Assembly: GCA_016181145.1 (NCBI GenBank)
Contig: JACOZW010000022.1
Coordinates: 1 to 48,176, forward strand
DNA length: 48,176 nucleotides
From: Candidatus Yanofskybacteria bacterium
Lineage (GTDB): Bacteria; Patescibacteriota; Minisyncoccia; 2-02-FULL-40-12; GWA2-44-9
Direction of reading: 5' to 3'
Shown here: positions 6,031 to 43,719 of the stretch, piece after piece
Layout of the letters: every line of letters starts with the position of its first letter
How positions within the stretch are numbered: position 1 is the first letter of the stretch
Notes under the pieces: generated by a model
Seen by the model: the letters and a program-made list of their open reading frames with translations, nothing else
What the model was told of the DNA's origin: nothing
Database searches by the model: none
Translations under genes and position numbers: made by a program

Positions 6031-7842
6031 TTATTTATCTTTAACGTGATAGCTCTTATATAGATACGAGTCAGCATTCTTTATTAATTCATCGGGAGTA
6101 CCCGTCTCAATAAGTTTTCCGCCGTCAAGAACAATAAGTCTGTCAGAGTTCATTACGGTAGATAGGCGGTGGGCGATTGCCAAAACAGTGATCTTCCCTT
6201 TAAGGCCATTTATTGCTTCTTGGATTAGTGACTCTGACTCATTATCTAAAGAACTGGTTGCCTCGTCGAGAATTAAGAGTGATGGCTTCTTAGCTAAAAC
6301 TCTGGCTAAAGAAATACGCTGTCTTTGGCCCCCAGATAGCTTAACTCCGCGTTCACCGACCTGCGTCTCAAATTTATTTGGCAGATCTTGTATAAAGTCA
6401 TAGATATTAGCCATTTTAGCGGCAGTTATAATGTCTTCGTGGCGTATAGAATCATCATAAAAACGTATATTAGTTTCGACTGTGTCATTAAGCAGAAAGA
6501 TATCTTGGGATACGTAACCGATATTCTTCCTCCAGCCTTTTAAATCTATTGAATCAATATCAATATTATCAACGGCGATAGCCCCTTCCTGGGGCTTTAA
6601 GAGGCGCAAGAAGAGATCAACGAGGGTTGTCTTGCCAGATCCGGATGGTCCGATTAAGCCGATCATCTCACCTTTTTTGATTGAGAAATCTATATTCGAG
6701 AGCGTATTTATATCTGTACCCGGATAGGCAAAGGTAATTTCTTTAACACTCATGACCTCCTCGAATTTAAATGATTTATTGCCAGATGATTTTTCTTGGT
6801 TTTTATCTACGCTATTTTGATATTCGAGCATCGTATTCAGATAAGTGAATGAAGAGTTAATGGTATTGAGTTTTGTTTGGATAGCTTGTATGAATGAATA
6901 CATCTTCTGGATTAGGTAAACAATTACCGCAAAAGAAGCTATGTTAAAATCAGGAGATTTATAATGATAAATAAATAACCCCGAAACGAATAGAAGAGAA
7001 ACCGGTTCGAACATTGCGTTTTGGATATTACCTATCAGTGAAATTTTAAGCTGGGTTTTTCTTAAGTTCTCCAGGTACTGAGAACTTTTTTTAACTACAG
7101 CTGATTCAACGGCAAAGGCTTTTAGGGTTTTGGCTCCAATTAAACTCTCATTGAAAATATGGCTTAGCTCCTTATTGCCCACATTCAAATATCTGGAAAG
7201 TTTGCGCGCTTTATATAGGAGAGGCTTTAAGGATATAAAAATAAGCGCCCCTCCTATCATAGATATGGCAGTAACCGTCGAGGATATTCTAAAAGCAATA
7301 AATGCGTAAGCTATTAAACTTGCAATACGGACCAGGACATCGCTTATAGCCATGATAATGGCTCCGCTCGAGGAGACGTCACCGGTAATAATTCGATCAA
7401 GATACCCGACTTTTTGATTCATTAGGAATGACCAATCTGATCCCAGGGTTTTTTTAAAAAGCATGGAACTATTGTCGCGCACATAATTTCCGTCAATTGA
7501 TTCATTAATATAATTAGCCAAGATAATAATTCCGGCCTTAGCGACGAAAAGCGAAACCATCAATCCCAAAATAAGCGGCAGATTGTAACCTAAGTGGAAG
7601 AAGGCTAAAGTTTTACTTACGAAGTGATGAAAAGTGCTGCCGGCACCTCCATCTTGCTGTGTTACAAAAGCGAAAAGAGGAATGAGCATGCCGATACCTA
7701 GGCCGCCTAACATACCACCAAGGAATCCTAATCCTGTCATAACCAAAAACTGGAGCCTGTATTTCCAGAAGGCATATTTTAAAACCTTTAGTGCCCTGTA
7801 GACTTTAACTGTACCAGAGAAAAATGTTGCTATCTTCTCCAT
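6031..7842 (-). CDS. ABC exporter with fused permease and ATPase (MsbA/PglK-like)
   Basis: N-terminal TM domain, Walker A GPSGSGKT, LSGGQRQR, LILDEATS, IAHRLST. Confidence 0.92.
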   Translation of the reverse strand: MEKIATFFSGTVKVYRALKVLKYAFWKYRLQFLVMTGLGFLGGMLGGLGIGMLIPLFAFVTQQDGGAGSTFHHFVSKTLAFFHLGYNLPLILGLMVSLFVAKAGIIILANYINESIDGNYVRDNSSMLFKKTLGSDWSFLMNQKVGYLDRIITGDVSSSGAIIMAISDVLVRIASLIAYAFIAFRISSTVTAISMIGGALIFISLKPLLYKARKLSRYLNVGNKELSHIFNESLIGAKTLKAFAVESAVVKKSSQYLENLRKTQLKISLIGNIQNAMFEPVSLLFVSGLFIYHYKSPDFNIASFAVIVYLIQKMYSFIQAIQTKLNTINSSFTYLNTMLEYQNSVDKNQEKSSGNKSFKFEEVMSVKEITFAYPGTDINTLSNIDFSIKKGEMIGLIGPSGSGKTTLVDLFLRLLKPQEGAIAVDNIDIDSIDLKGWRKNIGYVSQDIFLLNDTVETNIRFYDDSIRHEDIITAAKMANIYDFIQDLPNKFETQVGERGVKLSGGQRQRISLARVLAKKPSLLILDEATSSLDNESESLIQEAINGLKGKITVLAIAHRLSTVMNSDRLIVLDGGKLIETGTPDELIKNADSYLYKSYHVKDK

Positions 7843-28693: not shown

Positions 28694-28885
28694 ATGGGAA
28701 ATAGGCCAATAATTTGGGGGTTGATATTTTTCGGGATCGGGACGGTTGGCTGGGTTGTTTCTGTTGTTTTTAATGTTGTTACGCTTGGTGCTTTTGCCTG
28801 GATCAGTAATGTGCTGGGGATTATAGCTTTACTAAGTTTACCGATAGCGTTAATCTGTGAGTTGATAAGAAGAAAAAAGAAATGA
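28694..28885 (+). CDS. Small two-TM membrane protein
   Basis: Two hydrophobic stretches, basic tail, ATGA overlap with the next gene. Confidence 0.65.
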   Translation: MGNRPIIWGLIFFGIGTVGWVVSVVFNVVTLGAFAWISNVLGIIALLSLPIALICELIRRKKK

Positions 28886-29871
28886 ATATTCTTTTCAAAA
28901 AATATGTTTATCAGTTGGGTATTATAATTATCCTTCTTTCTGGTGGTGTTGGTTTTTTGTTGGGTTTTCAGATTGAGTCCGATAAATCTTCCGGAGAATT
29001 AAATCCTGTCAGGGAGAAACAGGAGCACTATACTTTTATAAATCCACTTCTTTTTTATAATAACCCCAGTGACGCCGAAGAATACAGCAGGCTTATTCGA
29101 GAAATAAATAGAATTATAAGCGACTCTGAATCTGAAAAAATCTCTGTCTATTATCGTGACCTAAATAAAGGAAAATGGTTTGGTGTTAATGAAGATGAAG
29201 AATATAATCCTGCAAGTATGCTTAAGGTAGTTGTCATGATCGGGTACCTAAAAGAAGCAGAAAATAATCCAGCTATTCTAGCCAAGAGAATAAAATATTC
29301 TGTGGAGGCCGACAGTCTTATAGGTACCATCCCTTATGATCGGGGGACTAGTCTCGTCCTTAATAAAAGCTATGTCGCTCAGGATTTAATTGAAAAAATG
29401 ATTATAGAATCGGATAATGGTGCAACTTATGCTCTTCTTGCAAATATGAATACAGATTTGCTTAATAATATATATATCGATCTCGGCTTAGGTAATCCGG
29501 CAGAGAAGGGTCGTGATTACGCTATATCGTCTAAAAATTACATTTCTTTCTTTAGGTTACTTTATAATGCTACTTATATAAACAGAACAATGTCTGAAAA
29601 AGCACTGTCGATTTTGGCCAGGTCTGACTTTGCGGGTGGTTTAGTTGCGGGTGTTCCAGATTCTATTACAGTTGCCCATAAGTTTGGAGAGAGTGTTCTT
29701 ACTGATCAGGGCAATAATATAAATGCCATAGAGCTTCATGATTGTGGAATTATTTATGCCCCTCAAAAACCGTACATGCTGTGTATTATGACAAGAGGAA
29801 GAGATCTCGATGATTTGAGCCAAATTATTAAAAGCATATCCAAGGTTGTTTATGATAGTGATGTTCGCTAG
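28882..29871 (+). CDS. Membrane-anchored serine hydrolase with class A beta-lactamase-like fold
   Basis: PASMLK (SxxK), SDN, AHKFG, HDCGII; N-terminal TM. Confidence 0.85.
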   Translation: MNILFKKYVYQLGIIIILLSGGVGFLLGFQIESDKSSGELNPVREKQEHYTFINPLLFYNNPSDAEEYSRLIREINRIISDSESEKISVYYRDLNKGKWFGVNEDEEYNPASMLKVVVMIGYLKEAENNPAILAKRIKYSVEADSLIGTIPYDRGTSLVLNKSYVAQDLIEKMIIESDNGATYALLANMNTDLLNNIYIDLGLGNPAEKGRDYAISSKNYISFFRLLYNATYINRTMSEKALSILARSDFAGGLVAGVPDSITVAHKFGESVLTDQGNNINAIELHDCGIIYAPQKPYMLCIMTRGRDLDDLSQIIKSISKVVYDSDVR

Positions 29872-35466: not shown

Positions 35467-35949
35467 ATGAAAAAAATTCTTATGGTTACGTCGATACTGG
35501 CAATTGTTGCCGGAATCGTTATGGTCGGGGGAGGAGTATGGGGAATTATATTTACATATAAAAATGTAGCTCAGGAGAAAATTACAACGCCGGCAGATGC
35601 TTCAATACCGAAAGCTCCGGTACTAGGTCCGCTTACGCTCAAGGCTCAGGCGGATATTATCAGGAAGCATACGCTCGAGACCACTGATGGTAAGGTTTTT
35701 GCTGAAATGCCGCGCCAGATTCAGAAGTTGGATGTTGACGGAAAGCCCGTTTTAGATGCTGACGGCAAACCGGTGATGACAGCAAATACCGCTCGTGATA
35801 TGTGGATAACAGCTACAACTCTAAATAACGCACTTAATTTAGGAATTATGGCGTATGCATTATCTAGTTTCATATTATTCTTAGGATTGGTGTTTGTCTG
35901 GATCGGAGCAGTTTTTTGCGTTCTAGGTAAACAAAAACCCGCTCTTTAA
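35467..35949 (+). CDS. Hypothetical membrane protein
   Basis: N- and C-terminal TM segments; GPLTLKAQADIIRKH core. Confidence 0.75.
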   Translation: MKKILMVTSILAIVAGIVMVGGGVWGIIFTYKNVAQEKITTPADASIPKAPVLGPLTLKAQADIIRKHTLETTDGKVFAEMPRQIQKLDVDGKPVLDADGKPVMTANTARDMWITATTLNNALNLGIMAYALSSFILFLGLVFVWIGAVFCVLGKQKPAL

Positions 35950-35958
35950 TGAGCGGGT
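35933..35958 (-). terminator. Array terminator, copy 3
   Basis: ACCCGCTC-ATTAAA-GAGCGGGT-TTTT on the minus strand. Confidence 0.85.
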
Positions 35959-35964
35959 GATGGG

Positions 35965-36582
35965 CTATATTCTCTCTTGTCCTGGTAGATAGGAATCCTC
36001 GTCACTGAATGTCGGGCCTCGCCAGGCGTCGATGATGGAGCCAAATTCGGACCATGCACCGCCCTTTATTATATCAACAGTAAGAAAACATATTACGCCA
36101 TCGTTGCCTAACTGGTAATTACCCGCATCATCAATTGTTTGGCTGGCATTTAAAAGAAGCCTCTCTTTTTTATCGGCACCGGCTGCTTCTAGTATATTGA
36201 CTATTTTTCTGAGGACTCTTGGGGGAATGGGCCCGCATTCTTTTAGGTTTCTCCATCTCCATGAAATATGGCCATATTTTCTAGATAGGTTTTCTGCCTG
36301 TTTGTTCAAAATAGTGTTGGTTGCTGTATGGTTATAACGACGACAACCTGTCCGTTTTAGGATTTGTAACATCCATAGCCCCGATAAAGATTTATTGCTG
36401 TGCCCTGATTGCTCGGCAAGTTTTATGTATTCATCAAGCTCCTGATCCGTTATTTTTAAGACTATGTCTTCTGGTTCTGGCACTACAAGCTCACCATCAT
36501 CCCTGATCAAATCCGCCGAGGGCGCCTGAACTGTTGCCAGGGCAGTTGTTTGCTTGCCCCGTAGTTTTGAAAGAACTCCCAT
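35965..36582 (-). CDS. Array paralog g6 (leader A, SYLPGQERI tail), unknown function
   Basis: Start set at MGVLSK by homology and SD GAGAGG; APSADLIR ... PIPPR ... ICFL ... IIDAWRGPTFSDE. Confidence 0.9.
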   Translation of the reverse strand: MGVLSKLRGKQTTALATVQAPSADLIRDDGELVVPEPEDIVLKITDQELDEYIKLAEQSGHSNKSLSGLWMLQILKRTGCRRYNHTATNTILNKQAENLSRKYGHISWRWRNLKECGPIPPRVLRKIVNILEAAGADKKERLLLNASQTIDDAGNYQLGNDGVICFLTVDIIKGGAWSEFGSIIDAWRGPTFSDEDSYLPGQERI

Positions 36583-36601
36583 CTTGGTTCCTCTCTTAAG
36601 C

Positions 36602-36648
36602 ATTCAATCTGGCCAGATTCTATAGTATAAATGCTGAATTGTCAAGGT
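36602..36648 (-). promoter_or_regulatory. Array promoter, copy 3, with 14-bp palindrome
   Basis: TTGACA-17-TAGAAT; AATCTGGCCAGATT at 36606-36619. Confidence 0.8.
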
Positions 36649-36698
36649 AGATATGACACACCCCGATTTCGCAGGAGGATAGCTATTAAACAGAGTTC

Positions 36699-36725
36699 AA
36701 AAAACCCGCTCTTTAATAGGCGGGT
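36699..36725 (-). terminator. Array terminator, copy 2
   Basis: ACCCGCCT-ATTAAA-GAGCGGGT-TTTTT on the minus strand. Confidence 0.8.
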
Positions 36726-36731
36726 GATGGA

Positions 36732-37382
36732 CTATATTCTCTCTTGTCCTGGTAGATAGGACTCCTCGTCACTGAAGGTCGGACCACGCCAGGCGTCGAT
36801 GATGAATCCATCTCGATCACTTCTGCTATCCTGTGTAAGTCCTAATCCAAGAAGAAATGTTAATGTCTTATGGGCCGTATAGGCGCCGACTGATTTATCA
36901 TATTCCCTCTCCAATATCCCTGATATAGTAAATTGGAGATCATCTGGGTGGGTAAAGTTGCTTCTAATCTCGTTTATTTTGTTGACAATCCTTGGCGGGA
37001 TAGGAGGACCGTAAGATGTATAATCGCACGTATCAGTTCTGCATATATAAATAGATCTATTACGATTTTTTTTACGAAGGTATTTTTGGGTTTTATGTTC
37101 AAAATCTGAAAGTTTCTCTTTGCCATACTGCTTACAGCCCAGCTTTATTAAGAGGTGACGAAGCCTTTCTTTTTTTAGTCCAAAGCTTTGGTAGTCCGCA
37201 TTATTTATAAGCTCCATATATCTTGCCAGTTCTTCGGGACTATGTTGGCATTCTATTTCTACCATTTTTGGTAATTCTGGTTCTGTATCATCCCTGATCA
37301 AATCCGCCGACGGCGCTTTAACCAATGCCGAATCCTGTGTTTGCGACTGGCTTTTTCTTCGAAACAATGTCATTACACTCAT
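36732..37382 (-). CDS. Array paralog g5 (leader B, SYLPGQERI tail)
   Basis: MSVMTLFRRKS...APSADLIR...IIDAWRGPTFSDEE. Confidence 0.9.
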   Translation of the reverse strand: MSVMTLFRRKSQSQTQDSALVKAPSADLIRDDTEPELPKMVEIECQHSPEELARYMELINNADYQSFGLKKERLRHLLIKLGCKQYGKEKLSDFEHKTQKYLRKKNRNRSIYICRTDTCDYTSYGPPIPPRIVNKINEIRSNFTHPDDLQFTISGILEREYDKSVGAYTAHKTLTFLLGLGLTQDSRSDRDGFIIDAWRGPTFSDEESYLPGQERI

Positions 37383-37432
37383 ATCTTCGCCTCCTCATCG
37401 CTGAAGGTCGGACCACGCCAGGCGTCGATGAT
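37287..37432. repeat. 146-bp coupling junction J1, copy 3
   Basis: Same length as and similar to 37895-38040 and 39353-39498. Confidence 0.9.
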
Positions 37433-37990
37433 GACCCTCCATGGCTTTGGAGGATAGCCACTATTCCCATCTAATTTCAGAAAGCAAATTTCTTGTCTTT
37501 CTTTCTTTTCTTTCTGCGGAACTTCTTGAATGTCGGTTATCCAGAAAAAGACTGTTTTTTCTTGGATGCCTTCAATATTGTCTTTTATTTTGTTTAGCTT
37601 TTTCAGCACACCGAGCGGAAGTGGCTTTTTATATTCATCGAGACGCCTCCAATCCCATATCAGATCTCTCCTGGTTGTTTTTCCTAAGCACATTGCCTGT
37701 CTATCCATAAAGGACCTAACCTCTTCTGGGTCATAATAACAAAAATTGCCCAGTTTTAACTTCCATAGCATTTCTTCTCTAAAGATTATGGGGGGAAAAT
37801 ATTCTAAATATTTTGCAAGGATAGTATATTCACTAAATTTATCCATCGGAATTTCACATTGTATTTCTCTTGGTTCGGGTATGACCAACTCATTATCTCC
37901 CCTTATCAAATCCGCCGAGGGCGCTTTAACCAATGCCGAATCCTGCGTTTGCAACCTGCTCTTTCTTCGAAACAATGTCATTACACTCAT
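37379..37990 (-). CDS. Array paralog g4 (leader B, AKI tail)
   Basis: Same terminal motifs; ATGA overlaps at both ends. Confidence 0.9.
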   Translation of the reverse strand: MSVMTLFRRKSRLQTQDSALVKAPSADLIRGDNELVIPEPREIQCEIPMDKFSEYTILAKYLEYFPPIIFREEMLWKLKLGNFCYYDPEEVRSFMDRQAMCLGKTTRRDLIWDWRRLDEYKKPLPLGVLKKLNKIKDNIEGIQEKTVFFWITDIQEVPQKEKKERQEICFLKLDGNSGYPPKPWRVIIDAWRGPTFSDEEAKI

Positions 37991-38040
37991 ATCTTCGCCT
38001 CCTCATCACTGAAGGTCGGACCACGCCAGGCGTCGATGAT
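37895..38040. repeat. 146-bp coupling junction J1, copy 2
   Basis: Direct repeat spanning the tail of g3 and the leader of g4. Confidence 0.9.
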
Positions 38041-38622
38041 GAGAGATTCTTCTTCGGGTGCGTCACTGCTTACGGCGACTTTCAGGAAACATATTTCGGT
38101 TCCGCGTTTCATGGGGATAACTCTTAATTTATTATTTCTATTTTCAGTATTTACTTTTCCATCATAGCGGTAAGTTACCCATACGATGTCTGAAACAAAA
38201 AATAGTAAATTTCTATCCATGGTAGCTACAGTCTTTACTACTCTATATGGCAGGGGATGTCGGTATTCTTTAATATCGACCCATTGCCACCAAAGATCAT
38301 CTCCGAGATGAAGGGTGCGGTGTGCGTACTCTATGTATCGCTTCATGAAACTGTCTACTTCTGATTTAGTATAAACCCTAAAATTCTCATATTTTAAGCG
38401 GTGTAGTAACTTTTCTCTACTGACAGCTACTTCGGGTAATCTATAACAGAAATTGGTTGTCTGGGTATAAGTGGTTAATTTTTTTGAATCCATCTCGGGT
38501 TCTATCTCTCTTGGTTCTGGGCACCATAACTCATTATCATCCCTGATCAAATCCGCCGAGGGTGCTTGAACTGTTGCCAGGGCAGTTGTTTGCTTGCCCC
38601 GTAGTTTTGAAAGAACTCCCAT
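37987..38622 (-). CDS. Array paralog g3 (leader A, AKI tail)
   Basis: MGVLSKLRGKQ...IIDAWRGPTFSDEEAKI. Confidence 0.9.
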   Translation of the reverse strand: MGVLSKLRGKQTTALATVQAPSADLIRDDNELWCPEPREIEPEMDSKKLTTYTQTTNFCYRLPEVAVSREKLLHRLKYENFRVYTKSEVDSFMKRYIEYAHRTLHLGDDLWWQWVDIKEYRHPLPYRVVKTVATMDRNLLFFVSDIVWVTYRYDGKVNTENRNNKLRVIPMKRGTEICFLKVAVSSDAPEEESLIIDAWRGPTFSDEEAKI

Positions 38623-38641
38623 CTCAGTTCCTCTCTAGAGT

Positions 38642-38688
38642 ATTCAATCTGGCCAGATTTTATAGTATAAATGCTGAATTGTCAAGGT
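38642..38688 (-). promoter_or_regulatory. Array promoter, copy 2, with 14-bp palindrome
   Basis: TTGACA-17-TAAAAT; AATCTGGCCAGATT at 38646-38659. Confidence 0.8.
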
Positions 38689-38737
38689 AAGCGAACTGGT
38701 AGATATTGACACACCCCAATTCCGTTAAGCAGAGTTC

Positions 38738-38764
38738 AAAAAACCCGCTCTTTAATGAGCGGGT
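38738..38764 (-). terminator. Array terminator, copy 1
   Basis: ACCCGCTC-ATTAAA-GAGCGGGT-TTTTT on the minus strand. Confidence 0.85.
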
Positions 38765-38770
38765 GATGGA

Positions 38771-39448
38771 CTATACTCTCTCTTGTCCTGGTAGATAGGA
38801 CTCCTCATCACTGAATGTCGGGCCTCGCCAGGCGTCGATGATGAGCGTCCAGCGCTTTTCATAACCAGCACAGCTACCATAAGTTGCAAATAACTCTATC
38901 CCCAAAAAGCAAATCAATGATTTATCATCAACGATTACACGATATACGCCTGGGTGGGATATATCTGAGATTGTAAATCTTCCATAAGGATCGCAGTTCC
39001 CCCCAAAGTAACAATAGTCAGATTCTCTTTGCAATTGTTTTACCAATTTCATAATTCGGGCCGGGATTGGCTCTTCGTATTTAGATATGCCGGTTATTGG
39101 CCGCCATAGCACTTGGAGATTGCCCCGTTGAGCGGTCTTTTCATAGTAACTCGTCTGTTTTTCGAGCAGGGTGTTAACTTTAGCACCTGGGTATAGACGA
39201 ATATTGTTATTCACTAGAATCCGAATAACGTCTTGATGTATAAAGCTGACGTTATCGAATTTTCCGCGGCCACCAATCAAGTCTTGATATGCATTAAATT
39301 CTTCCGTATCCATGTGTTTTGGAACATAGGTTTCGGGAAGGACCAACTCATTATCTCCCCTAATCAAATCCGCTGATGGCGCTTGAATCAAGGCTAAACT
39401 CTGTGATTGCGGCTGGCTCTTTCTTCGAAACAATGTCATCGCGCTCAT
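38771..39448 (-). CDS. Array paralog g2 (leader B, SYLPGQERV tail)
   Basis: MSAMTLFRRKS...APSADLIR...IIDAWRGPTFSDEE. Confidence 0.9.
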   Translation of the reverse strand: MSAMTLFRRKSQPQSQSLALIQAPSADLIRGDNELVLPETYVPKHMDTEEFNAYQDLIGGRGKFDNVSFIHQDVIRILVNNNIRLYPGAKVNTLLEKQTSYYEKTAQRGNLQVLWRPITGISKYEEPIPARIMKLVKQLQRESDYCYFGGNCDPYGRFTISDISHPGVYRVIVDDKSLICFLGIELFATYGSCAGYEKRWTLIIDAWRGPTFSDEESYLPGQERV

Positions 39449-39498
39449 ATCTTCGCCTCCTCATCACTGAATGTCGGGCCTCGCCAGGCGTCGATGAT
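39353..39498. repeat. 146-bp coupling junction J1, copy 1
   Basis: Direct repeat spanning the tail of g1 and the leader of g2. Confidence 0.85.
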
Positions 39499-40113
39499 GA
39501 GAGATTCTGCAATAGGTGTACTTTCATTTGCAGTAACCCTAAGAAAACATATTTCCGTTTTTCGTTTCATGGGAATAATTTGCCATTGCTGAATGCGCTG
39601 ACCCGTATTTTCACAGTTATAGTGTGTGCGGGAAGTTACCCAAACAATATCTGAAATAAAAAATCTAAAATAGTTTCGCGAATACCCTTCTGCATTAGCG
39701 TGGGATATTTTTTTTACATAGTCGATTACTCTGGGAGGAAGGGGATGGCTGTATTCTCGGAGATTGATCCATTCCCACCAAAGATCGTCACCCAGCTTAA
39801 GGGTTCTAGATGCATATTTTATACATTGTCGCATGCAATTAGCCACCCCTGAGTGATTATAAGTTCTTAGATTCAGGGTCTTTAGGAGATGCAATAATTT
39901 TTCTCTGGCTATGACTGAGGTTTGGGCGTCAAGTGCTAAGTCATCGATCGCTCGGACATATTCGGCTAACTTCTCCGGTGCAATCTCTAGCTCTATCTCT
40001 TTCGGTTCTGGGCACCATAACTCATTATCATCTCTGATCAAATCTGCTGACGGCGCCTGAACTGTTGCCAGGGCAGTTGTTTGCTTGCCCCGTAGTTTTG
40101 AAAGAACTCCCAT
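39445..40113 (-). CDS. Array paralog g1 (leader A, AKI tail)
   Basis: MGVLSKLRGKQ...IIDAWRGPTFSDEEAKI. Confidence 0.9.
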   Translation of the reverse strand: MGVLSKLRGKQTTALATVQAPSADLIRDDNELWCPEPKEIELEIAPEKLAEYVRAIDDLALDAQTSVIAREKLLHLLKTLNLRTYNHSGVANCMRQCIKYASRTLKLGDDLWWEWINLREYSHPLPPRVIDYVKKISHANAEGYSRNYFRFFISDIVWVTSRTHYNCENTGQRIQQWQIIPMKRKTEICFLRVTANESTPIAESLIIDAWRGPTFSDEEAKI

Positions 40114-40132
40114 CTCAGCTCCTCTCCAGAGT

Positions 40133-40179
40133 ATTCAATCTGGCCAGATTTTATAGTATAAATGCTGAATTGTCAAGGT
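40133..40179 (-). promoter_or_regulatory. Array promoter, copy 1, with 14-bp palindrome
   Basis: TTGACA-17-TAAAAT; AATCTGGCCAGATT at 40137-40150. Confidence 0.8.
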
Positions 40180-40567: not shown

Positions 40568-41548
40568 ATGGCCACTCAGAGTCTCACTCGTCGTGCGGGA
40601 GCAGGCAGTTCTATGTCGCGCCGCTCAGATATGAAGTTGTTTATCGATCGGGCGGTCCAGGATGGTGTCAGAGACATCAAGGAAAGTGCTGAAGCGCTGA
40701 AGAGCTTAGATGGCGACTTGCGTCGGGAGCTGGATGTCCCATTAGATAGAACTAAGAGCATGATGGCCAAGGTATTAAATATGGTTATTCCCAAGCGTTT
40801 TTATTCGGATTTGCCGAACAGCCTTGTTAGATACATGGGTGAAGCACAGGATGTTATTATTCAGATAGGCTCAGATAAGAGGCATCACTGTAATAATATA
40901 CAAATAGGCCTCCGAAATTTGTACGATGCCGCGAATGCCAAAAAGGAGCAATTGGCAGAATTAAGAGCTACAATAGAAACGGCTCAAAGAGAAAATTGGA
41001 ATGCGAGACAGCTTCAGGAATACATGACTAAAAGTGTCGGGATAGAGGTCTTTAGGGAGATAAGTGATCTTCTCGACGAAGAGTTTGGTATTCTTGGAGA
41101 AGAAGAGCAGGAGGCCAGAAAGCAGCAGCTTCTTGATCAGCTACATAATGCTACTGTTGGCGGCGAAAGATTTATGAAGTTGATGGCCGGTGTTGTATCA
41201 GCGGGCTTATCGGTTTTCTCAGCAGGGGTTGCAAGCTATTTCGAATACGAGCTATTTGAGCACGATACCATTCAATTGAGGGAAGCGGCCAAGGCATTTG
41301 TCGACGTTAATAAGGGGATATATGCCGGCCGGGCGGCTATTACTGGTACGATAACAACTTCTATTGATGGTATTCGCAAGGCTGTCAAAATGGCCGAATT
41401 GTACAATAAGTGCTCTCTTTTTTCAGATGATTTCTTGGAAGTTTTGGATGAGGCGGAAGAGCTGGTTAGCAAGGATATCAAGTCTCTTGACAACCCCTCG
41501 AGCAAACGGAAAGAATTACCCGTTATCGATGTTGTCCCTGTAAGTTAG
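40568..41548 (+). CDS. Coiled-coil/helical hypothetical protein
   Basis: SD AAGGAG; 326 aa, helical composition. Confidence 0.8.
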   Translation: MATQSLTRRAGAGSSMSRRSDMKLFIDRAVQDGVRDIKESAEALKSLDGDLRRELDVPLDRTKSMMAKVLNMVIPKRFYSDLPNSLVRYMGEAQDVIIQIGSDKRHHCNNIQIGLRNLYDAANAKKEQLAELRATIETAQRENWNARQLQEYMTKSVGIEVFREISDLLDEEFGILGEEEQEARKQQLLDQLHNATVGGERFMKLMAGVVSAGLSVFSAGVASYFEYELFEHDTIQLREAAKAFVDVNKGIYAGRAAITGTITTSIDGIRKAVKMAELYNKCSLFSDDFLEVLDEAEELVSKDIKSLDNPSSKRKELPVIDVVPVS

Positions 41549-41646: not shown

Positions 41647-42228
41647 ATGGGGATTATCGGTCGGATCTTGAGGCAGACTAGGGTTAGTTACAATGCGCCG
41701 GTGATACTAACTTTTACGGTTATGGCATCAGCTGTTTTTGCTCTGTTTAGCATTACGGGAACTTCGTTTTATCATTTGTTTTCTGCTCCTACGGAGTTTA
41801 GGCTTTTTTCTCCGATCACATATTTCCGTTTTGTATCTCATATCTTGGGGCATCAAAGCATGCAGCATTTATCGGGGAATTTTATGATCATATTGTTGAT
41901 CGGACCGTTGGTAGAGGAAAAATACTCATCATTTTCACTGTTGTTGATGATAGTAATTACCGCTTTAGCGACAGGAATTCTTAATATAATACTATTTTCT
42001 ACCAGCTTAATGGGTGCAAGTGGTATCGTCTTTATGCTTATCATTTTGAGCTCACTAACTAATTTTAGAAGGAGAGAGATTCCATTGACATTTTTGCTGG
42101 TCATAACTATTTTCTTGGGTAATGAGGTGATAAGCAGTTTTAACAGCGACAATATATCGCAGTTTGCCCATATCTTGGGCGGTATATGCGGTGCTGGATT
42201 CGGATTATTTTTCGTGAATAAAAGATAA
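41647..42228 (+). CDS. Rhomboid-family intramembrane serine protease
   Basis: HILGH...HLSGNF, GPLVEE, catalytic GASG, FAHILGG. Confidence 0.9.
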   Translation: MGIIGRILRQTRVSYNAPVILTFTVMASAVFALFSITGTSFYHLFSAPTEFRLFSPITYFRFVSHILGHQSMQHLSGNFMIILLIGPLVEEKYSSFSLLLMIVITALATGILNIILFSTSLMGASGIVFMLIILSSLTNFRRREIPLTFLLVITIFLGNEVISSFNSDNISQFAHILGGICGAGFGLFFVNKR

Positions 42229-43047: not shown

Positions 43048-43719
43048 GTGTCTAGCAGAACTTTGACGAAAGAAAGAGTAAAAACCTCGGTATCGCTCGG
43101 AGATCTGGATATCAATTCAGGTACATCGAGTCTGGAGCTGATTGATGATGGGCCGAATGAGGCAGTTTGCCGGCTTGTCAGCAAATTTCAGCAAGCGAAT
43201 CAGCAAGCTAATCATAGGGAAGCATTAGAACGGCAAGCAAGGGGTCTAGCGATTAACGAGATGGCTTCCAAACAAAATCTTGCCAGCATGTTTATCGATG
43301 CATACACCTACGCATTCAATATTACAATAAATCAAATGGGAGTATTGGTGCAGGAGATTGGAGAGAATAATCTGCCATTTCTAGAGAATAAACTATTTGA
43401 AAGACTCAGGAAGAGAGCGGGGGTAATAGTTAGTGCGAGCATTATTTCTGGAGGAGCTTTTACGGTTGATCTAATAGACATCTTTTCGTCTGGGAGTCTT
43501 GTTTTGCTACCACTTCCGTTATTCATGGTATGTTTTTTGGGCTGGATACTACCATTTTTGGTTCTTGTTTCTTCGGGTACGGCGCGGTCAGAACCTTTCA
43601 GATCGGTTTCATACATAAGGGCTAGAAAGCGCCTCAAGAAAAAGTACGGCCCAGATTACTTTCCGTATCAGGAATTGAGGAAAGAATTGAGATTGGCAGA
43701 AAGTGTAAGCGGGGAGTAG
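43048..43719 (+). CDS. Hypothetical membrane protein
   Basis: SD GAGGAG, GTG start, promoter TTGACG-16-TATAAT; TM hairpin then LKKKYGPDY. Confidence 0.75.
   Translation: MSSRTLTKERVKTSVSLGDLDINSGTSSLELIDDGPNEAVCRLVSKFQQANQQANHREALERQARGLAINEMASKQNLASMFIDAYTYAFNITINQMGVLVQEIGENNLPFLENKLFERLRKRAGVIVSASIISGGAFTVDLIDIFSSGSLVLLPLPLFMVCFLGWILPFLVLVSSGTARSEPFRSVSYIRARKRLKKKYGPDYFPYQELRKELRLAESVSGE

Follow-up and report, generated by a model that had tools for sequence, protein, structure and literature searches.

In contig JACOZW010000022.1 of a Candidatus Yanofskybacteria genome (GenBank assembly GCA_016181145.1), the minus strand carries a tandem array of six paralogous genes, whose proteins of 203-225 amino acids (aa) are 33-60% identical to the product of the first. 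The stretch analysed, referred to here as the window, covers 48,176 nucleotides (nt). Its genes belong to a lineage-restricted and uncharacterised family with proteins of about 200-225 aa, and the host genome measures about 1 Mb (951,685 bases on 68 contigs). We number the genes g1 to g6 in the order of their transcription, with the start of g6 set at MGVLS (the earliest ATG of its open reading frame, ORF, lies at 36603), and list them with the leader, tail and core types that are described below.

39445-40113, minus strand: g1, first gene of unit 1; leader A, short tail EEAKI; core clade I
38771-39448, minus strand: g2, last gene of unit 1; leader B, long tail EESYLPGQERV; core clade III
37987-38622, minus strand: g3, first gene of unit 2; leader A, short tail; core clade I
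37379-37990, minus strand: g4, internal gene of unit 2; leader B, short tail; core clade II
36732-37382, minus strand: g5, last gene of unit 2; leader B, long tail EESYLPGQERI; core clade IV
35965-36582, minus strand: g6, sole gene of unit 3; leader A, long tail EDSYLPGQERI; core clade II

Each member of the family is built in the same way, with an invariant N-terminal box (N-box, APSADLI..D.E), an invariant C-terminal box (C-box, IIDAWRGPTFSDEE) and a strongly diverged core between the two; both box peptides are invariant in 36 of 36 family proteins. The N-boxes lie as follows, and the C-boxes are listed further on.

40036-40056, minus strand: N-box APSADLI of g1
39362-39382, 38545-38565, 37904-37924, 37296-37316 and 36505-36525, minus strand: N-boxes of the other five genes

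In the predicted structure of one family member (predicted local distance difference test, pLDDT, 79.8 overall), the first part of the C-box, LIIDAWR, forms a buried β-strand with a pLDDT of about 93, and the N-box falls in a low-confidence stretch that is predicted to be disordered. As the C-box peptide is invariant in all 36 proteins and makes up a strand of high pLDDT, it is certain that selection acts on this peptide. What the family does is harder to say: none of the six proteins matched any family in profile searches of Pfam, NCBIfam and PADLOC, a sequence search of the PDB gave a best match of E 0.14, which is not significant, and fold searches with the family model were equally without significant matches (best Foldseek E 0.15; best VIA-align Z 5.0, over 43 residues), as a search of the protein atlas was without a usable one. 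A search of 5.8 billion protein sequences brought the family to 37 members, the six window genes included, many of them on shared contigs, and their source names, where given, are those of Candidate Phyla Radiation groups only. The family was not found in the 60 genomes of relatives that were searched (six from the same genus, and some of the 60 incomplete), and was found neither in a species-representative genome collection nor in viral contigs. An N-terminal motif that is disordered but invariant, a C-terminal strand that is likewise invariant and has an acidic tail, and cores that diverge fast together suggest that the members could share a partner or a processing step whilst varying in specificity.

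Operon slots and the ends they carry

The anatomy of the array can be read directly from the DNA. The genes fall into three transcription units, [g1 g2], [g3 g4 g5] and [g6], each opened by a near-identical promoter-like site that matches 11 of the 12 consensus positions, and each followed by a terminator-like hairpin.

40148-40176, minus strand: promoter-like site of unit 1; TTGACA, 17 nt, TAAAAT; 11/12
38657-38685, minus strand: promoter-like site of unit 2; near-identical copy
36617-36645, minus strand: promoter-like site of unit 3; near-identical copy
38743-38764, minus strand: terminator-like hairpin and T run after g2
36704-36725, minus strand: terminator-like hairpin after g5; one stem mismatch, found by reading and unlisted in the scan
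35937-35958, minus strand: terminator-like hairpin and T run after g6

Two kinds of leader and two kinds of tail are distributed over these units. Leader A (MGVLSKLRGKQTT...) belongs to the gene directly behind each promoter, and leader B (MSVMTLFRRKS...) opens at an ATG that overlaps the TGA of the gene upstream. The short tail ends ...GAT GAG GAG GCG AAG ATA TGA (EEAKI), and the GAGGAGG within it is placed as a ribosome-binding site, 7 nt before the overlapping ATG; such ATGA overlaps, each with its preceding GAGGAGG, are found at g1/g2, g3/g4 and g4/g5. The last genes end instead in EE- or ED-SYLPGQER[IV], followed by a near-identical hairpin and T run. Judging by the sequences, the long tail looks like the short one with about six extra codons, as a comparison of EE-SYLPGQ-ERI, and of EE-ARLPGQ-AKI in the homologue P0030, with EE-AKI would suggest.

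An earlier, sequence-only reading of this DNA had pointed out that all four combinations of leader and tail occur among the six genes (A with AKI in g1 and g3, B with SYLP in g2 and g5, B with AKI in g4, A with SYLP in g6), and it had taken this mosaic as a sign of repeated recombination or gene conversion within the two boxes. The combinations are as described. They follow a simple rule of position, however, which is a direct observation: in 6/6 genes, leader A marks the first gene of a unit and no other, and the long tail marks the last gene and no other. Each slot brings its own leader, from a promoter or an overlap, and its own tail, from a following gene or a terminator; leader and tail type are therefore properties of the operon slot, and not of the protein. 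The four combinations are then nothing other than first and followed, internal and last, internal and followed, and first and last, so that free mosaic recombination is not needed to account for them, and this part of the earlier argument falls away.

The rule extends beyond this genome. Ten related metagenome loci were fetched, of which L014 (a duplicate of L013) and L022 (which repeats a gene of L019) were left out. In all 18 genes with a visible 5' context, leader A stands behind a TTGACA promoter region and leader B behind an overlap junction; the short A[KR]I tail is found in nine of nine genes that have another gene following, and the long ..LP.. tail in 9/11 last genes.

In all three units the 5' leader also has, immediately behind the -10 hexamer, a perfect palindrome of 12 nt, ATCTGGCCAGAT, which is not conserved in the six related loci.

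about 40115-40135, 38625-38645 and 36585-36605, minus strand: the three palindrome-bearing 5' leaders

Cores against ends

If the ends belong to the slot, where do the cores belong? In a maximum-likelihood tree of the columns between the boxes in 36 proteins, the cores form well-supported clades: clade I contains g1 and g3, clade II contains g4 and g6, and clades III and IV contain g2 and g5, respectively. Each of the window cores sits beside genes from other genomes, and monophyly of the six is rejected (log-likelihood difference 376, p-AU 0.0003). Sister cores often carry differing ends. Next to g6, with leader A and a long tail, stands P0029, with leader B and a short one; g2 has leader B and a long tail where its sister P0020 has leader A and a short one; and the sisters g4 and P0018 differ in their leaders (B and A). 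Leader type must have changed at least ten times on the core tree, and tail type likewise at least ten times. This incongruence between cores and ends is observed directly, and the six genes show it on their own: when leader, N-box variant, C-box haplotype and tail are paired, five of the six pairings contain all four combinations, including haplotype against tail, which lie less than 30 nt apart. Congruent trees for the separate segments would have spoken against recombination, but the partitions of the six genes are mutually incompatible.

The ends behave in the opposite manner to the cores, since they are alike within a genome whilst the cores group with other genomes. Identity at the DNA level is 87-100% at the ends and drops to about 20-60% in the cores within 10-20 codons; over a length of 20 codons, identity reaches 100% among the A leaders of the window, which stand on cores of different clades. 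In a comparison that takes the genes as independent and has no control for genome-specific codon bias, the 42-nt C-box shows 3.00 differences between genes of one genome and 4.26 between those of different genomes (as low in 40 of 5000 shuffles), and the N-box 8.30 against 13.12 (0 of 5000); the within-genome likeness persists when the window is left out (32/5000 for the C-box, 21/5000 for the N-box). Lineage-specific variants of the boxes are likewise common to paralogues from different core clades: LIRDD occurs in only four window genes among the 36 proteins, VPSTDLI is common to both L018 genes, and APDA[DN]LI to both L015 genes. The earlier reading had picked out g5 as a gene that joins leader B to the LIRDD DNA of the A type, and indeed it continues after its leader with ATC AGG GAT GAT, the same as g3 and g6. 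It had also described two linked synonymous haplotypes next to the C-box motif, which hold as claimed: CGA-GGC-CCG-ACA in g1, g2 and g6, and CGT-GGT-CCG-ACC in g3, g4 and g5. By reading, identical runs are longer between pairs from the same unit (34-44 nt).

Taken on the sequences, this pattern reads as the signature of concerted evolution of the ends. As the ends are alike within a genome and the cores fall into cross-genome clades, the end points of exchange would lie inside the boxes. We therefore favour, with a probability of roughly 0.7, a reading in which the ends are bound to the slots, and old core cassettes change slots by homologous exchange anchored in the boxes, which homogenises the ends. 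We infer from sequence the mechanism of exchange, the role of RecA and the coupling of translation. The cores would be old cassette types, common to other genomes, that swap slots via unequal crossover or gene conversion. Exchange would presumably be dependent on RecA, which is encoded in the genome. Where a tract starts in the N-box, everything upstream would stay with the slot, be it promoter and leader A or the tail of the prior gene and leader B; where it starts in the C-box, everything downstream would stay, be it an overlap junction or a terminator. The same exchange could homogenise boxes, leaders, tails, promoters and terminators within a genome. Genes within a unit would be coupled in translation, as the EEAKI tail would supply the ribosome-binding site of the next gene and its stop overlaps the next ATG. 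The notion of recombination within the boxes thus survives in altered form, in that the ends do re-assort on cores and the boxes evolve in concert.

Could purifying selection have produced the same picture, with no recombination since the duplications, and with the combinations arising from whole-gene duplication and loss? The invariance of both box peptides across the 36 proteins is what such selection would leave behind, the EEAKI tail holds the next gene's ribosome-binding site, and the position rule alone accounts for the four combinations. It is the silent and lineage-specific differences that make this explanation rather improbable in our estimation: linked synonymous haplotypes are common to neighbouring genes of different core clades, paralogues of one genome have lineage-specific amino-acid variants in common, the A leaders are identical to the last nucleotide over 20 codons on cores of different clades, and sister cores have different leaders and tails.

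The 18-mer and its codons

The C-box holds the 18-mer that the sequence-only reading had found invariant in the six genes and had proposed as a recombination or protein-binding site. Its six exact copies, CGCCAGGCGTCGATGATG, all on the plus strand and each containing the dyad CGCC-A-GGCG, lie at 36020, 36787, 37416, 38024, 38826 and 39482, as it had stated, against none expected from shuffled sequence.

39457-39498, minus strand: C-box of g1; 18-mer 39482-39499; haplotype CGA-GGC-CCG-ACA
38801-38842, minus strand: C-box of g2; 18-mer 38826-38843; haplotype CGA-GGC-CCG-ACA
37999-38040, minus strand: C-box of g3; 18-mer 38024-38041; haplotype CGT-GGT-CCG-ACC
37391-37432, minus strand: C-box of g4; 18-mer 37416-37433; haplotype CGT-GGT-CCG-ACC
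36762-36803, minus strand: C-box of g5; 18-mer 36787-36804; haplotype CGT-GGT-CCG-ACC
35995-36036, minus strand: C-box of g6; 18-mer 36020-36037; haplotype CGA-GGC-CCG-ACA

The idea of a dedicated site, at which a site-specific recombinase or a DNA-binding protein would shuffle or regulate the cassettes, draws on this invariance in 6/6 window genes and on the unusual fixation, across genomes, of its synonymous sites on rare codons ending in C, to which we return. Most other evidence runs counter to it, and we consider such a site highly improbable. On the coding strand the 18-mer reads C ATC ATC GAC GCC TGG CG, that is, the codons of (x)IIDAWR, a peptide that is itself invariant and structural. 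Its six copies are all direct and none inverted, and the 9-nt dyad cannot fold alone. No further site was found in the window at up to three mismatches (mean 0 in 100 shuffles), nor in the rest of the genome outside the six genes at up to two. In the genome collection there are more than 119 matches, which are single sites in unrelated, mostly GC-rich organisms; one that was checked lies in an ABC ATPase. Recombinase, integrase, transposase and reverse transcriptase families are not represented among the 49 window ORFs scanned (17 + 32), and the single match to Phage_integrase (a tyrosine recombinase) in the genome is on another contig, C66. Amongst homologous genes of other genomes, the exact 18-mer is kept in only 6/14, with the variants GCT (in four genes), ATT, GAT, GTC and GTT in the others, and the dyad is disrupted by GCT in four genes and by GAT in one. 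The 18-mer is not an invariant DNA site across homologues. In the exchange that we favour, it would serve as a passive homology anchor with no dedicated site; as it is the sole homology linking the core to the variable codons of the C-box, an exchange on the C-terminal side must begin within it.

The sequence-only reading had named free synonymous variation of the 18-mer among close homologues as evidence against its inference. Such variation is seen only in part: the synonymous sites of I-I-D-A are much less variable than those of neighbouring residues or of other invariant residues. Over 17 full-length genes, the codons are ATC in 16/16, ATC in 16/17, GAC in 16/17 and GCC in 14/17, with TTC further on in 16/17, set against a usage within the codon family of 0.22 for ATC, 0.25 for GAC and 0.32 for TTC in the host genome. 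The synonymous sites of the neighbouring Arg, Gly, Thr, Ser and second Asp of the C-box vary freely, and other invariant residues are on common codons (Tyr TAT 13:3 and 12:5; Phe TTT 13:3 and 12:4), as are those of the N-box (Asp GAT 14:3; Ile 8:5:4). The same residue can be followed from place to place: the D codon is GAC at 16:1 in the 18-mer as against 7:10 ten codons downstream (p 0.002), and the F codon is TTC at 16:1 in the C-box as against 4:12 in the core (p 6e-5). Fisher tests on the fixed codons gave p from 0.007 to 1e-5, with the caveat that the genes are not independent.

Several general causes were considered for this anomaly and set aside. Selection for translational accuracy was rejected as a general cause, as other invariant Y, F, I and D sites freely use A/T-ending codons. 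GC-biased conversion is at best a partial cause: GC content at third codon positions (GC3) is 0.36 in the cores and 0.62 in the C-box and tail, where, however, the most frequent codons for Arg and Thr end in A. An antisense ORF across the junction would, by reading, put its third positions on the sense ones, which stay synonymous, and so would impose no constraint. A hairpin masking the next gene's ribosome-binding site was dropped on the folding results given next.

A more specific proposal is that conservation of the C-box nucleotides reflects a function in RNA or translation, such as a gating structure, a factor site, or a nascent-chain or codon-dependent pause, with recombination as a side effect. 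The rare codons fixed across genomes in ATC ATC GAC GCC and TTC would be at home here, the ribosome-binding site of the following gene comes about 25 nt after the C-box, and in some copies the minimum-energy fold joins CUCAUCA to UGAUGAG. The folds themselves lend it little, as the consensus of 20 sequences is weak (-4.6 kcal/mol) with 0 compensatory pairs, and the folding energies are ordinary next to GC3-matched synonymous recodings (recodings that are at least as stable make up a fraction of 0.04-0.92, which exceeds 0.1 for 16/20 sequences). There is no Rfam match, and the same codons are fixed in last genes, which have no gene downstream. We regard this proposal as very unlikely. Separately, the W-R-G-P stretch bears a resemblance to ribosome-arrest motifs of the R-A-G-P type.

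How well, then, does box-anchored exchange between slots stand? Several points weigh against it. Two last genes, the third of L016 and that of L017, have the short tail AKI and stop at TAG ahead of a terminator hairpin, and the tail rule thus reflects history and is not absolute. Nor is homogenisation uniform, as the three C-boxes of L013 each have a different haplotype. DNA was available for only 20 genes from about nine loci, and the within-versus-between comparison carries the assumptions given with it. No exchange event was seen directly in the four public sequencing runs that contain this DNA, all from one study, whose short assembled contigs break at the boxes and show no informative joints. 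Lastly, passive anchoring leaves the fixation of rare codons (ATC ATC GAC GCC, and TTC) across several genomes unaccounted for, and the I-I-D-A synonymous sites may be under constraint at the nucleotide or codon level. Perhaps the 18-mer is selected as nucleic acid as well as peptide, as a signal that directs exchange or controls the expression of cassettes; the locus would then be a dedicated cassette-shuffling system that diversifies the family, paired with a 326-aa partner encoded beside it, in ultra-small episymbiotic bacteria. We think this unlikely, and offer it tentatively.

Two side observations belong with these points. In L016 (7897-7960) and L017 (495-560), AKI and TAG stand directly before the hairpin, as if one or more downstream genes had been lost at the junction. 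In the groundwater runs, contigs share the C-box of g1 and continue into other sequence beyond 39455 and 39500, including a tail of the ..ARLP type; it follows from these loose ends that strains or family members whose cores and tails differ co-occur in the groundwater. One contig has a 56-nt joint that goes back from 39500 to 39445, though neither the joint nor the loose ends can be assigned to this organism.

Known systems, neighbours and significance

In the silent-cassette systems pilE/pilS, vlsE and msp2, variable cassettes have short conserved flanks that guide gene conversion, and one expression site is served by promoterless, truncated donor cassettes; the array differs in that it is made of six complete ORFs with start codons, in three promoter-led units. 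Integrons and shufflons are also cassette arrays with a repeated short sequence, which depend on an integrase or recombinase encoded next to them and on sites that are structured or inverted. The array resembles them in its short repeat between cassettes, but has no recombinase in the window, only direct 18-mers, and a repeat that lies inside coding sequence. It is also unlike a diversity-generating retroelement, as no reverse transcriptase family is found amongst the window ORFs scanned and the cores are paralogues of 33-60% identity rather than near-repeats.

By analogy, the bab family of Helicobacter pylori would be the closest match in behaviour. The paralogues babA, babB and babC have regions of homology at the N- and C-terminal ends, on either side of a variable middle, and homologous recombination or gene conversion inside the genome yields chimeras in which a locus-bound 5' region stands on another middle (PMC4552749). 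The array is alike in that ends stay with the slot while middles move: it has conserved 5' and 3' regions, ends that are independent of the middles, and ends, but not middles, that are more alike within a genome. It differs in other respects: the bab genes are at dispersed loci, encode outer-membrane adhesins, and have had their conversion demonstrated experimentally, whereas the array is tandem and operonic, with coupling and exchange that we deduce; its homology regions are only about 40-120 nt, and the two families have no sequence relationship. The array is a new example of a known process, concerted evolution, in an undescribed family; full-text literature searches turned up no paper on multigene families or gene conversion in these bacteria, and a more general one none on concerted evolution of bacterial tandem families.

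The most consistent neighbour of the array is a divergent gene on the other strand.

40568-41548, plus strand: 326-aa protein, predicted all-helical, conserved divergent neighbour; adjoins the array here and in six related loci

This protein belongs to a family of 16, on the same narrow set of contigs as the array family, and is predicted, at low confidence, to be all-helical, with a hydrophobic stretch at about residues 205-225 inside a long helix. It had no match to a curated family and no significant fold match; the non-significant Foldseek rows (E 0.4-1.2) include the alpha-pore-forming toxins ClyA, XaxB, PaxB and YaxAB, which can be taken as a lead only. Prediction of a complex between this protein and a family member yielded no verdict, at a score of 0.00.

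Three related loci also encode a distant paralogue (42-52 bits to the family profile), about 1.5 kb upstream and on the other strand.

L015:3765-4403, L016:3820-4512 and L018:3809-4426, minus strand: distant paralogue with degenerate boxes, ..LI[RQD]DD.. and ..[IV][IV]D[SM]W[GN]K..

In the window, the corresponding place is taken by an ORF of 223 aa (43048-43719), which was considered as a counterpart of this paralogue and turned out to be unrelated. In L018, the second family gene (6633-7252, plus strand) is split into overlapping ORFs, 6633-6869 and 6842-7252, and is probably frameshifted. Two other genes on the plus strand of the window were observed in passing: a rhomboid-family protease gene (41647-42228; PF01694, E 3e-16), two genes from the array and with no BLASTP match in the related loci, and, in what is a very small genome, a match to the Beta-lactamase2 enzyme family (28882-29871; PF13354, E 5e-36).

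To conclude, what looked like a puzzle of recombination reduces to a rule: ends belong to the operon slot, and cores probably move between slots. The fixed rare codons of the C-box stand beside this rule as a small, well-controlled anomaly. Concerted evolution is documented here in a genome of about 1 Mb, where expanded arrays of paralogues are uncommon, so that this array is likely to be important to the lifestyle of its host. As neither the family nor its 326-aa neighbour has a curated family or a clear fold match, both are candidates for lineage-specific biology, which may lie, for example, in host interaction or in a function at the cell surface.

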